From Escherichia coli (GTDB taxonomy: Bacteria; Pseudomonadota; Gammaproteobacteria; Enterobacterales; Enterobacteriaceae), in the NCBI RefSeq assembly GCF_003334305.1, contig NZ_QOWS01000043.1: a stretch of 10,116 nucleotides of DNA. One strand, written 5' to 3'. Position numbers and translations under genes: made by a program. Of the stretch, positions 1 through 6,607 are shown in pieces (the first letter of the stretch is position 1; each line of letters starts with the position of its first letter). The notes beneath the pieces are model-generated. The model was not told the origin of the DNA. It ran no database searches and saw nothing but the letters and a program-made list of their open reading frames with translations.

Positions 1-76
1 GAGCGGTAGTTCAGTCGGTTAGAATACCTGCCTGTCACGCAGGGGGTCGCGGGTTCGAGTCCCGTCCGTTCCGCCA
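1..76 (+). tRNA. aspT: tRNA-Asp (anticodon GTC), truncated by 1 nt at the window edge (5' G missing)
   Basis: Sequence gagcggtagttcagtcggttagaatacctgcctgtcacgcagggggtcgcgggttcgagtcccgtccgttccgcca matches the E. coli tRNA-Asp sequence as I recall it, minus the first G. GTC anticodon at about 34-36 in the loop ctgtcac, T-arm ggttcgagtcc, encoded 3' CCA. The gene name is assigned by context (followed by tRNA-Trp and hdfR, as at the distal end of rrnC). Confidence 0.9.
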
Positions 77-1576: not shown

Positions 1577-3097
1577 TTATGTCAGTAGTTTTTGCAGATG
1601 GATGAGCAAACGGTCAATCGCACGATAGCTAACTGCCTCCTGCAAATGCTGACGTGTGATAATGTCAGACTGATCAATATCAGCAATGGTTCGTGCAACT
1701 TTCAATAACCGCTGCCAGGCACGAATCGATAACCCCAGATGGATCAGTGTTCCTTCCAACCACATCGCATCTTCGCTCTCAAGTTTGCAGAATTGGCGTA
1801 TTTCCGGACTATCCAGCCAGGCATTCAGTTTATTCTGCCGCTTAAATTGGCGCTCTCTGGCGGCCATTACGCGTTGTTTAACGGTGGCGCTGCTTTCTCC
1901 CGGCACTACCGTTTTACTCAAAATGCCGGGGGGTGGTAATGGGATCTCCAGTGAGAGATCGAAGCGGTCGAGAAAGGGCCCCGAGAGCCGGTTGAGATAA
2001 CGTAATGTCTGTTCTGGCGTGCAGCGGTTATGGTTTCCCTGATAATGTCCGGTAGGGCTGGGATTCATCGCCGCAACAAGCTGGAAACGGGCTGGATAGG
2101 TTATTTTGGCTCGTGTGCGTGAAAGATGGATCTGCCCGGATTCAATCGGCTCTCGCAAGGCATCCAGTGTACGCCGTTCAAATTCAGGTAGCTCATCAAG
2201 AAAAAGCACGCCGTTATGCGCCAACGAAATTTCACCTGGCCCTGGAATTGCACCACCGCCCACCATCGCAGTTAACGACGCACTGTGATGCGGTGAGCGG
2301 AACGGGCGCTGCCGCCATTGTTTTTGTACTGATTCAGCATTTACCAGACTTAATATCGCAGCGCTCTCCAGTGCCTCTTCATTGCTTAAATCTGGCAACA
2401 GGCCATTAATACGGCTGGCGAGCATTGTTTTACCTGTTCCCGGCGGCCCAATCAGTAAAAGGTTGTGCCCGCCAGCGGCGGTAATTTCCAGTCCTCGCTT
2501 TCCTTGCTCCTGACCGACAACATCACTGAGATCATGTTGTAGCGCCCGGGATACTGCATCAGTTGGTTTCGGGCGTTCGAGAGCGTGCTTACCTTCCAGA
2601 AACGCACAGACAGCCTGCAGATGATCGGCTATCAGGCATCCTTCACCGTTAATTAGCCCCACTTCATCTTCGTTATCTTTCGCGACGATAATTTTTCTGC
2701 CCGACTTAATAGCTTCAGTTGCACTGGAGATTGCGCCGGGAACGCCACGCAGAGCGCCTGTAAGCGCCAGTTCTCCGACTAATTCATATTCATCTAACTT
2801 ATTGGCTGTAAGCTGTTCTGAGGCCGCCAGCAACGCAATGGCGATAGGTAAATCATATCGTCCCCCTTCTTTTGGCAGATCGGCTGGAGCCAGGTTGATG
2901 GTGATTTTTTTCGCCGGATATTCATATCCGCTATTGATAATGGCGCTGCGCACGCGATCGCGAGCTTCTTTTACAGTTGTTTCTGGTAAGCCCACCATCG
3001 TTAAGCCGGGTAGACCTTTACTGATATGTACCTCAACAGTGATTGGGGGCGCATTTACTCCCAGGGCTGCGCGGGTATGAACAATTGACAGTGACAT
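1577..3097 (-). CDS. comM: ComM / YifB, Mg-chelatase-like AAA+ ATPase (competence protein ComM homolog), 506 aa from the downstream ATG
   Basis: Long minus-strand ORF with Walker A (LLLIGPPGTGKTM) and Walker B (VLFLDELPEF) motifs and an N-terminal Lon-protease-like region. The six-frame track starts at the ATG at 3127 (516 aa), but the in-frame ATG at 3095-3097 is preceded on the coding strand by AAGGAGGG with about a 4-nt spacer, a near-consensus Shine-Dalgarno. It gives the 506-aa product beginning MSLSIVHTRA, which matches my recollection of YifB. Confidence 0.85.
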   Translation of the reverse strand: MSLSIVHTRAALGVNAPPITVEVHISKGLPGLTMVGLPETTVKEARDRVRSAIINSGYEYPAKKITINLAPADLPKEGGRYDLPIAIALLAASEQLTANKLDEYELVGELALTGALRGVPGAISSATEAIKSGRKIIVAKDNEDEVGLINGEGCLIADHLQAVCAFLEGKHALERPKPTDAVSRALQHDLSDVVGQEQGKRGLEITAAGGHNLLLIGPPGTGKTMLASRINGLLPDLSNEEALESAAILSLVNAESVQKQWRQRPFRSPHHSASLTAMVGGGAIPGPGEISLAHNGVLFLDELPEFERRTLDALREPIESGQIHLSRTRAKITYPARFQLVAAMNPSPTGHYQGNHNRCTPEQTLRYLNRLSGPFLDRFDLSLEIPLPPPGILSKTVVPGESSATVKQRVMAARERQFKRQNKLNAWLDSPEIRQFCKLESEDAMWLEGTLIHLGLSIRAWQRLLKVARTIADIDQSDIITRQHLQEAVSYRAIDRLLIHLQKLLT

Positions 3098-3304
3098 AAG
3101 CCCTCCTTGAGTCACTATTATGTGCATAAGATATCGCTGCTGTAGCCCGCTAATTCGTGAATTTTAGTGGCTGATTCCTGTTTATTTGTGCAAGTGAAGT
3201 TGAGTTGTTCTGGCGGTGGAATGATGCTCGCAAAAATGCAGCGGACAAAGGATGAACTACGAGGAAGGGAACAACATTCATACTGAAATTGAATTTTTTT
3301 CACT

Positions 3305-3380
3305 CACTATTTTCTTTTTAAAAAACAACAATTTCTATTGAAATTATTAAACGCATCATAAAAATCGGCCAAAAAATATC
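3305..3380 (+). promoter_or_regulatory. AT-rich upstream activating region of the ilv operon promoter (UP-element / IHF-binding region expected here)
   Basis: About 80% A+T stretch with several A5-6 tracts (3320-3325, 3360-3364, 3371-3376) immediately upstream of the candidate core promoter. Published work on ilvGMEDA describes an upstream AT-rich activating region with an IHF site and a non-productive upstream promoter. Exact site boundaries cannot be fixed from sequence alone. Confidence 0.4.
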
Positions 3381-3421
3381 TTGTGCTATTCGCAAAATCT
3401 ATGGTAACTCTTTAGGCATTC
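3381..3421 (+). promoter_or_regulatory. Candidate core promoter and transcription start region for ilvLXGMEDA
   Basis: Candidate -35 TTGTGC (3381-3386) and candidate -10 hexamers in 3400-3410 (tatggt / taactc). A start near 3420 would give a leader of about 180 nt ending at the attenuator T-run (3596-3603), consistent with the recalled leader length. The hexamer assignment is uncertain. Confidence 0.35.
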
Positions 3422-3449
3422 CTTCGAACAAGATGCAAGAAAAGACAAA

Positions 3450-3548
3450 ATGACAGCCCTTCTACGAGTGATTAGCCTGGTCGTGATTAGCGTGGTGGTG
3501 ATTATTATCCCACCGTGCGGGGCTGCACTTGGACGAGGAAAGGCTTAG
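3450..3548 (+). CDS. ilvL: ilv operon leader peptide (32 aa): MTALLRVISLVVISVVVIIIPPCGAALGRGKA
   Basis: ATG at 3450 through TAG at 3546-3548. 15 of 32 codons encode Leu (4), Val (6) or Ile (5), the hallmark of the branched-chain amino acid attenuation leader. An intrinsic terminator lies immediately downstream. Confidence 0.9.
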   Translation: MTALLRVISLVVISVVVIIIPPCGAALGRGKA

Positions 3549-3569
3549 AGATCAAGCCTTAACGAACTA

Positions 3570-3603
3570 AGACCCCCGCACCGAAAGGTCCGGGGGTTTT
3601 TTT
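3570..3603 (+). terminator. ilv attenuator (Rho-independent terminator of the leader transcript)
   Basis: GC-rich stem acccccg (3571-3577) / cgggggt (3590-3596) followed by 8 consecutive T (3596-3603), 22 nt after the ilvL stop codon. Confidence 0.85.
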
Positions 3604-3634
3604 TGACCTTAAAAACATAACCGAGGAGCAGACA

Positions 3635-3685
3635 ATGAATAACAGCACAAAATTCTGTTTCTCAAGATTCAGGACGGGGAACTAA
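3635..3685 (+). CDS. ilvX: Small ORF ilvX (16 aa: [16 protein letters not shown]) between the attenuator and ilvG
   Basis: ATG at 3635-3637 preceded by GAGGAG (3624-3629), stop TAA at 3683-3685, two nt before the ilvG ATG. It matches the position and sequence of the described E. coli small protein IlvX as I recall it. Translation cannot be judged from sequence alone. Confidence 0.55.
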
Positions 3686-3687
3686 CT

Positions 3688-5334
3688 ATGAATGGCGCAC
3701 AGTGGGTGGTACATGCGTTGCGGGCACAGGGTGTGAACACCGTTTTCGGTTATCCGGGTGGCGCAATTATGCCGGTTTACGATGCATTGTATGACGGCGG
3801 CGTGGAGCACTTGCTGTGCCGACATGAGCAGGGTGCGGCAATGGCGGCTATCGGTTATGCCCGTGCTACCGGCAAAACTGGCGTATGTATCGCCACGTCT
3901 GGTCCGGGCGCAACCAACCTGATAACCGGGCTTGCGGACGCACTGTTAGATTCTATCCCTGTTGTTGCCATCACCGGTCAAGTGTCCGCACCGTTTATCG
4001 GCACGGACGCATTTCAGGAAGTGGATGTCCTGGGATTGTCGTTAGCCTGTACCAAGCACAGCTTTCTGGTGCAGTCGCTGGAAGAGTTGCCGCGCATTAT
4101 GGCTGAAGCATTCGACGTTGCCAGCTCAGGTCGTCCTGGTCCGGTTCTGGTCGATATCCCAAAAGATATCCAGCTAGCCAGCGGTGACCTGGAACCGTGG
4201 TTCACCACCGTTGAAAACGAAGTGACTTTCCCACATGCCGAAGTTGAGCAAGCGCGCCAGATGCTGGCAAAAGCGCAAAAACCGATGCTGTACGTTGGTG
4301 GTGGCGTGGGTATGGCGCAGGCAGTTCCTGCTTTACGAGAATTTCTCGCTACCACAAAAATGCCTGCCACCTGCACGCTGAAAGGGCTGGGCGCAGTTGA
4401 AGCAGATTATCCGTACTATCTGGGCATGCTGGGAATGCATGGCACCAAAGCGGCGAACTTCGCGGTGCAGGAGTGCGACTTGCTGATCGCCGTGGGTGCA
4501 CGTTTTGATGACCGGGTGACCGGCAAACTGAACACCTTCGCACCACACGCCAGTGTTATCCATATGGATATCGACCCGGCAGAAATGAACAAGCTGCGTC
4601 AGGCACATGTGGCATTACAAGGTGATTTAAATGCTCTGTTACCAGCATTACAGCAGCCGTTAAATATCAATGACTGGCAGCTACACTGCGCGCAGCTGCG
4701 TGATGAACATGCCTGGCGTTACGACCATCCCGGTGACGCTATCTACGCGCCATTGTTGTTAAAACAACTGTCGGATCGTAAACCTGCGGATTGCGTCGTG
4801 ACCACAGATGTGGGGCAGCACCAGATGTGGGCCGCGCAGCACATCGCACACACTCGCCCGGAAAATTTCATTACCTCCAGCGGCTTAGGCACCATGGGTT
4901 TCGGTTTACCAGCGGCGGTTGGCGCACAAGTCGCACGACCGAACGATACTGTCGTCTGTATCTCCGGTGACGGCTCTTTCATGATGAATGTGCAAGAGCT
5001 GGGCACCGTAAAACGCAAGCAGTTACCGTTGAAAATCGTCTTACTCGATAACCAACGGTTAGGGATGGTTCGACAATGGCAGCAACTGTTTTTTCAGGAA
5101 CGATACAGCGAAACCACCCTTACTGATAACCCCGATTTCCTCATGTTAGCCAGCGCCTTCGGCATCCCTGGCCAACACATCACCCGTAAAGACCAGGTTG
5201 AAGCGGCACTCGACACCATGCTGAACAGTGATGGGCCATACCTGCTTCATGTCTCAATCGACGAACTTGAGAACGTCTGGCCGCTGGTGCCGCCTGGCGC
5301 CAGTAATTCAGAAATGTTGGAGAAATTATCATGA
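3688..5334 (+). CDS. ilvG: Acetolactate synthase II (AHAS II) large catalytic subunit, intact 548 aa
   Basis: Uninterrupted 548-aa ORF starting [25 protein letters not shown] with a thiamine-diphosphate binding motif ([14 protein letters not shown]...LDN). GGGGA Shine-Dalgarno-like sequence 8 nt upstream. Followed by ilvM with a 4-nt overlap. Confidence 0.95.
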
Positions 5335-5594
5335 TGCAACATCAGGTCAATGTATCGGCTCGCTTCAATCCGGAAACCTTAGAACGTGTTTTACGCGTGG
5401 TGCGTCATCGTGGTTTCCACGTCTGCTCAATGAATATGGCTGCCGCCAGCGATGCACAAAATATAAATATCGAATTGACCGTTGCCAGCCCACGGTCGGT
5501 CGACTTACTGTTTAGTCAGTTAAATAAACTGGTGGACGTCGCACACGTTGCCATCTGCCAGAGCACAACCACATCACAACAAATCCGCGCCTGA
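5331..5594 (+). CDS. ilvM: Acetolactate synthase II small (regulatory) subunit, 87 aa
   Basis: 87-aa ORF starting [12 protein letters not shown]. Its ATG (5331-5333) overlaps the ilvG last codon and stop (tcATGA), typical of translational coupling. Size and position match IlvM. Confidence 0.9.
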
Positions 5595-5613
5595 GCGCAA
5601 AAGGAATATAAAA

Positions 5614-6543
5614 ATGACCACGAAGAAAGCTGATTACATTTGGTTCAATGGGGAGATGGTTCGCTGGGAAGACGCGAAGGTGCATGTGATGTCGCACGCG
5701 CTGCACTATGGCACCTCGGTTTTTGAAGGCATCCGTTGCTACGACTCACACAAAGGACCGGTTGTATTCCGCCATCGTGAGCATATGCAGCGTCTGCATG
5801 ACTCCGCCAAAATCTATCGCTTCCCGGTTTCACAGAGCATTGATGAGCTGATGGAAGCTTGTCGTGACGTGATCCGCAAAAATAATCTCACCAGCGCCTA
5901 TATCCGTCCGCTGATCTTCGTCGGTGATGTTGGCATGGGAGTAAACCCGCCAGCGGGATACTCAACCGACGTGATTATCGCTGCTTTCCCGTGGGGAGCG
6001 TATCTGGGCGCAGAAGCGCTGGAGCAGGGGATCGATGCGATGGTTTCCTCCTGGAACCGCGCAGCACCAAACACCATCCCGACGGCGGCAAAAGCCGGTG
6101 GTAACTACCTCTCTTCCCTGCTGGTGGGTAGCGAAGCGCGCCGCCACGGTTATCAGGAAGGTATCGCGCTGGATGTGAACGGTTATATCTCTGAAGGCGC
6201 AGGCGAAAACCTGTTTGAAGTGAAAGATGGTGTGCTGTTCACCCCACCGTTCACCTCCTCCGCGCTGCCGGGTATTACCCGTGATGCCATCATCAAACTG
6301 GCGAAAGAGCTGGGAATTGATGTGCGTGAGCAGGTTCTGTCGCGCGAATCCCTGTACCTGGCGGATGAAGTGTTTATGTCCGGTACGGCGGCAGAAATCA
6401 CGCCAGTGCGCAGCGTAGACGGTATTCAGGTTGGCGAAGGCCGTTGTGGCCCGGTTACCAAACGCATTCAGCAAGCCTTCTTCGGCCTCTTCACTGGCGA
6501 AACCGAAGATAAATGGGGCTGGTTAGATCAAGTTAATCAATAA
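5614..6543 (+). CDS. ilvE: Branched-chain amino acid aminotransferase (PLP fold type IV), 309 aa
   Basis: ORF starting at ATG 5614 (MTTKKADYIWFNGEMVRWEDAKVHV...) preceded by AAGGA at 5601-5605. The track's 331-aa version starts at an upstream TTG (5548) inside ilvM and is an over-extension. Sequence matches IlvE as recalled. Confidence 0.92.
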   Translation: MTTKKADYIWFNGEMVRWEDAKVHVMSHALHYGTSVFEGIRCYDSHKGPVVFRHREHMQRLHDSAKIYRFPVSQSIDELMEACRDVIRKNNLTSAYIRPLIFVGDVGMGVNPPAGYSTDVIIAAFPWGAYLGAEALEQGIDAMVSSWNRAAPNTIPTAAKAGGNYLSSLLVGSEARRHGYQEGIALDVNGYISEGAGENLFEVKDGVLFTPPFTSSALPGITRDAIIKLAKELGIDVREQVLSRESLYLADEVFMSGTAAEITPVRSVDGIQVGEGRCGPVTKRIQQAFFGLFTGETEDKWGWLDQVNQ

Positions 6544-6552
6544 ATACAAAAA

Positions 6553-6577
6553 ATGGGACGGCACGCACCGTCCCATT
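6553..6577 (+). other. Intercistronic stem-loop between ilvE and ilvD (possible weak terminator / mRNA stability or processing element)
   Basis: Perfect 8-bp inverted repeat tgggacgg (6553-6560) / ccgtccca (6567-6574) with a 6-nt loop, preceded by an A-run and followed by only TTT. This is not a strong U-tract, so partial termination at most. Confidence 0.5.
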
Positions 6578-6607
6578 TACGAGACAGACACTGGGAGTAA
6601 ATAAAGT

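Follow-up and report, generated by a model that had tools for sequence, protein, structure and literature searches.

The analyzed stretch, hereafter the window, comprises 10,116 nt of Escherichia coli DNA (assembly GCF_003334305.1, contig NZ_QOWS01000043.1) and holds the ilvLXGMEDA operon. It is 100% identical to strain 503025 (NZ_CP025892.1), where the annotated gene order is tRNA-Asp, tRNA-Trp, hdfR, maoP, yifB, ilvL, ilvX, ilvG, ilvM, ilvE, ilvD, ilvA, ilvY and ilvC. The region 5300-6600 was matched in 5425 of 5426 complete E. coli genomes, with 100% identity to many chromosomes, and the order ilvG-ilvM-ilvE-ilvD is also present in seven other genera. Two tRNA genes occupy the left end of the window (1-73 and 85-157); the identical RefSeq record has them as tRNA-Asp and tRNA-Trp, and the former is truncated by the window boundary. 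A 157-bit match to Rfam family RF02744 ('Soft rot Enterobacteriaceae Rev 39 5'UTR') at positions 3379-3668 spans the ilvL leader/attenuator and most of ilvX, and it appears that this family represents the leader of ilvG. The ilvG gene (3688-5334) is intact and encodes 548 aa, whereas K-12 ilvG carries a frameshift (PMC9299463), and it overlaps ilvM by 4 nt (ATGA at 5331-5334). With an intact ilvG, the window does not derive from K-12.

The junction under study lies between ilvM and ilvE, both on the plus strand. The ilvM gene (5331..5594) encodes the 87-aa small subunit of acetolactate synthase II, an assignment that rests on the ORF list, the translation, the RefSeq annotation of the identical sequence and NCBIfam NF008362, which spans the whole product with 133.9 bits. 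Its TGA stop is at 5592-5594 and the protein ends with SQQIRA. The ilvE gene (5614..6543; ATG at 5614-5616, TAA stop at 6541-6543) encodes the branched-chain amino acid aminotransferase of 309 aa (WP_000208515.1). In the longest-ORF list the same plus-strand frame runs from 5548 to 6543, giving 331 aa from a TTG at 5548-5550, and its translation reads (L/M) plus 21 residues followed by MTTKKADYIWFNGEMV. The 22 upstream codons (5548..5613, plus strand), which we judge not to be translated as part of IlvE, consist of the terminal 47 nt of ilvM, taken in its +1 frame (5548-5594), and the 19-nt intergenic spacer (5595-5613). The TTG is made by the ilvM codon junction GTT|GCC (Val, Ala). It is the first start-like triplet past an in-frame TAA at 5521, the frame being open from 5524, and a mechanical ORF caller therefore extends to it. 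The earlier note, made from the sequence alone, had called the TTG-initiated frame an over-extension, with its 22 extra residues read out of frame through the end of ilvM, and had placed the real start at the ATG, 8 nt downstream of an AAGGA Shine-Dalgarno (SD) sequence. Coordinates and sequences proved correct in each respect: the AAGGA is at 5601..5605 on the plus strand, separated from the ATG by the 8-nt A/T spacer 5606-5613, ATATAAAA.

Annotation and protein data both placed the start at the ATG. On the identical sequence, RefSeq/PGAP has ilvE at window positions 5614..6543 (locus 5615..6544) with 309 aa, and the same ATG is used in three of three further E. coli genomes with SNPs in this region. 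Alignment with characterized IlvE proteins had been proposed as a check of the 309-aa protein beginning MTTKK; the solved E. coli chains bear this protein out. 1I1K and four more entries hold 309 aa from MTTKK, and 1A3G holds 308 aa from TTKK, aligning to residues 23-331 and 24-331 of the 331-aa ORF, respectively, that is from the residues encoded at the ATG. The window protein is identical to 1I1K at 308 of 309 positions (E = 1.2e-211). In gene, start, length of 309 aa and operon (ilvL-ilvX-ilvG-ilvM-ilvE-ilvD-ilvA) it thus corresponds to the K-12 protein, the two differing, besides the state of ilvG, by E236D. This conservative Glu to Asp change relative to the K-12 crystal sequence is the sole substitution, and its codon lies at 6319-6321. 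Edman amino-terminal sequencing of transaminase B by Lee-Peng et al. in 1979 and the ilvE sequence of Kuramitsu et al. in 1985 are both said to have given a mature subunit of 308 residues starting TTKKADY. A full-text literature search for the peptide TTKKADYIW gave no match, and the supplementary files of TRAINSPOTTER, of the Salmonella riboproteogenomics paper, of INRI-seq and of Giess et al. 2017 contain no ilvE entry.

The same start emerged from the family models. We tested the product as a group I branched-chain amino acid aminotransferase (TIGR01122 / NF005146; Pfam PF01063, fold type IV), and it scored above the cut-offs of both TIGR01122 (488.4 bits, cut-off 245.55) and NF005146 (483.9 bits, cut-off 279). 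It carries the motif PTAAKAGGNYL, which contains TAAKAGGNY, the lysine of which binds PLP, and the gene sits in the ilvGMEDA operon context. In NF005146, positions 2-306 of 307 correspond to residues 24-329 of the 331-aa ORF, which puts position 1 of the model on the ATG codon at 5614; the TIGR01122 alignment begins at residue 32, and in the family-model search none of the profiles reached residues 1-22.

This was further supported by a search for homologues, which at a threshold of E <= 1e-30 gave 7999 proteins. Among the best 120 of these, 119 have lengths of 283-310 aa, and their alignments, which span 92-93% of the 331-aa query, stop short of the extension. In a collection of about 15 billion proteins the exact 331-aa sequence was not found, and the 309-aa form is present there on at least 1000 contigs. 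The 90%-identity cluster that contains E. coli IlvE (P0121/P0122) is represented by a 548-aa IlvG and holds a mixture of IlvG and IlvE members, probably because fused or frameshifted gene calls chained the two families together; as a consequence, the E. coli IlvE cluster is missing among the top homologue matches.

The sole exception among the best 120 homologues, P0001, is a protein of 403 aa in which IlvM and IlvE domains are both present. It comes from a single Logan contig, SRR32638934 (L006:1501-2712), and is explained by a 1-nt deletion (CGCGCC to CGCCC) near window position 5589, in the penultimate ilvM codon. With one G lost, ilvM runs on into the open frame ahead of ilvE. P0001 reflects a frameshift, whether by true mutation or through misassembly, and as a fusion of this kind it was ruled out as support for a start at the TTG.

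We then compared the ilvM-ilvE junction of the window with those of Salmonella, K. pneumoniae, Raoultella, Erwinia, Proteus, Edwardsiella and Budvicia. All eight genera keep the ATG, an (A)AGGA a short way upstream and the N-terminus M(T/S)(T)K(K/Q)AD(Y/F)IWFNG(E/D)MV, and ilvE is found in all three phases relative to ilvM. The phase is +1 in E. coli (spacer of 19 nt), K. pneumoniae (16 nt), Raoultella (16 nt), Proteus (10 nt), Edwardsiella (52 nt) and Budvicia (19 nt), +2 in Salmonella (17 nt) and 0 in Erwinia (18 nt). An in-frame TTG 22 codons before the ATG occurs in E. coli and K. pneumoniae; Proteus has GTG codons 7 and 10 codons upstream, and Budvicia has a TTG at 20, an ATG at 24 and a TTG at 26 codons. 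In the remaining four of the seven other genera (Salmonella, Raoultella, Erwinia and Edwardsiella) an in-frame start upstream of the ilvE ATG is absent, and in Erwinia the frame is closed seven codons before the ATG by ilvM's own stop. The spacers of Salmonella and E. coli differ by a 2-nt indel, located past the TTG site and before the ATG, and the region upstream of the ATG is therefore read in a different frame in Salmonella. At the TTG site itself Salmonella has GTC|GCA and Raoultella GTC|GCC; neither change alters IlvM, and neither codon pair contains a TTG. Across the seven other genera we thus did not find what an extended proteoform would call for, an upstream start and a peptide that are conserved in a maintained frame, and at the protein level no conserved residues preceded MTTKK in the genera compared.

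The pattern of substitutions pointed in the same direction. The ilvM genes of E. coli and Salmonella differ at 28 sites: two at first, three at second and 23 at third codon positions. Within the 47-nt overlap these two species differ at five sites, three of them third positions of ilvM codons and hence second positions of the extension frame; the three SNPs seen within E. coli (5552, 5558 and 5570) all follow this pattern and leave the IlvM accession unchanged. The concentration of changes on ilvM third positions shows that selection acts on the ilvM frame only. Within the species, 5283 of 5425 E. coli genomes are at least 99% identical over 5530-5630, a variation too low to test the TTG itself.

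We also examined the initiation signals. The predicted duplex with the 3' end of 16S rRNA is -5.6 kcal/mol for the ATG (7-nt spacing) vs. -4.9 kcal/mol for the GGUGGA ahead of the TTG, and SD duplex energy alone does not separate the two starts. What favors the ATG is the SD spacing (7-8 vs. 11-12 nt), the A/U-rich spacer and the identity of the start codon; TTG is a rare start codon, and 11-12 nt does not fall in the usual optimal range of SD spacing. The ilvE start region is less stably folded than shuffled sequence (z = +1.04). A scan of 5100-5750 for promoter and terminator consensus sequences gave nothing above chance on the plus strand; an internal ilvE promoter is mentioned in PMC9299463. 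With uniform codons, the probability of 30 open codons upstream of a start is about 0.24, and that of at least one ATG, GTG or TTG in such a 30-codon stretch about 0.78. A start-like in-frame triplet upstream of the ATG is thus expected by chance.

Against this background, the reading that fares best after initiation at the ATG is one in which most ribosomes use the ATG and a few start at the TTG in E. coli (and K. pneumoniae), yielding a minor, lineage-specific extended proteoform. In-frame upstream starts that yield extensions have been detected by Ribo-RET for a few E. coli genes, six in BW25113 and 36 in BL21 according to the main text of the preprint, a text in which ilvE does not appear. 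The TTG is, moreover, placed inside ilvM, where active translation would disfavor internal initiation, the extension peptide bears no mark of selection, and the triplet has been lost by synonymous ilvM change in both Salmonella and Raoultella. We consider such dual initiation very unlikely. Possible trace initiation at the TTG is what residual uncertainty there is, and none of our analyses gave positive evidence for it.

The 3' end of ilvM is nevertheless more conserved than the sequence before it, and a second reading takes this as dual coding, with 5571-5591 specifying both ilvM and a conserved peptide in the ilvE frame. In a comparison of six genera, 5 of the 7 ilvM third positions in 5571-5591 are invariant vs. 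4 of 24 farther upstream (Fisher p = 0.012), and in the extension frame a 10-residue peptide is common to E. coli and Klebsiella, Raoultella having the close variant HHNKSAHKRK. This apparent conservation of the extension could be mistaken for a conserved peptide ahead of MTTKK. Salmonella and Erwinia, however, also keep these nucleotides although their frame relative to ilvE differs, and the constraint must for that reason be on the RNA or DNA rather than on a peptide. The likely causes are complementarity to the small RNA GcvB, a hairpin together with the SD context, and the conserved IlvM C-terminus SQQIRA. With these at hand to account for the conservation, we regard a dual-coding origin as extremely improbable.

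The first of these causes concerns a C/A-rich stretch at 5555..5581 on the plus strand, a putative pairing site for the GU-rich R1 region of GcvB, which overlaps the conserved segment 5571-5591. We took the GcvB sequence from an E. coli genome (Rfam RF00022 match of 199 bits) and tiled its R1 region, and this region only, along the plus strand. For positions 5555-5581 the predicted duplex with nt 63-92 of GcvB has -25.9 kcal/mol and takes rank 10 among 3360 plus-strand tiles (mean -13.8, sd 4.2); better raw duplex energies occurred at tiles inside ilvD and ilvA. The stretch is located 33-59 nt upstream of the ATG, just before the ilvE SD, and thereby has what is looked for in an R1 site, a C/A-rich complement near the start codon. 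According to PMC9299463, ilvE belongs to the GcvB R1 targets, with verification in Salmonella and conservation in E. coli; GcvB- and Hfq-dependent repression of Salmonella ilvE in vivo, with compensatory mutations, is reported there from Sharma et al. 2011. The predicted E. coli site resembles the C/A-rich sites near the start of known targets such as ilvC and ilvE in Salmonella (PMC9299463). In E. coli, RIL-seq and CLASH recovered no ilvE chimeras (PMC9299463). Judged from the sequence, 5555-5581 is probably a GcvB pairing site that controls ilvE.

The second cause is a small predicted hairpin, UCCGCGC-CUGA-GCGC-AAAA-GGA, at 5584..5605 on the plus strand (centroid structure, -7 kcal/mol). The ilvM stop lies in its loop, and its outer pairs, UCC:GGA, engage the GGA of the ilvE SD. 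All six aligned genera retain the GCGC/GCGC core, and the hairpin may contribute to translational coupling between ilvM and ilvE. There is a slim chance that the locus holds something more unusual, being either trace initiation at the TTG in E. coli and K. pneumoniae, with a 22-residue basic tail, or a combined element in which GcvB site, stop-codon hairpin and SD together couple ilvE to the termination of ilvM.

That the TTG is the true and sole start, and IlvE a 331-residue protein with a basic N-terminal tail overlapping ilvM, is effectively refuted and hardly conceivable: the open frame from 5524, the GGUGGA before the triplet and the same TTG with a similar in-frame peptide in K. pneumoniae speak for it, but the solved chains, the family profile beginning at the ATG, the four genera without an in-frame start, the three spacer phases, the substitutions at second positions of the extension frame, the absence of the 331-aa sequence from the protein collection, and the codon and spacing unusual for a start all stand against it.

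Taken together, annotation, solved chains, family profile and comparative sequence lead us to conclude that IlvE is almost certainly translated from the ATG at 5614 and that the TTG extension is not part of any protein. The over-extension called in the earlier note is upheld by annotation, structures, profile and homologues alike. IlvE would be made from this ATG as 309 residues, the initiator Met then being removed, with an expected native N-terminus of TTKKADYIWFNGEMVR. The ribosome would bind the AAGGA at 5601-5605, which follows closely on the ilvM stop in A-rich, unstructured sequence, and initiation could occur either de novo or by a ribosome arriving from termination at the ilvM stop, 19 nt upstream. 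A ribosome ending at the ilvM UGA would be expected to melt the small hairpin and could re-initiate at ilvE, for which the coupling of ilvD and ilvA (Harms et al. 1988, as cited) offers a parallel. The TTG at 5548 would be an accident of ilvM codon choice, GTT followed by GCC.

The start of ilvE was already known, since the 309-aa protein is in RefSeq, the PDB and the family models, and there is no biological question that depends on this start call. The value of the analysis is one of quality control only, in that the longest-ORF track makes ilvE 22 codons and yifB 10 codons too long. As in the generic over-extension artefact of longest-ORF lists, the first ATG, GTG or TTG after a stop has been taken while the real ATG and its ribosome-binding site are downstream; nothing about the ilvE case is distinctive, and its extension runs into the preceding gene in another frame. 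The second over-extension in the window is that of yifB on the minus strand, where the longest ORF (1577-3127) has 516 aa vs. 506 aa in RefSeq (1577..3097), with an ATG 10 codons and a GTG six codons before the annotated start.
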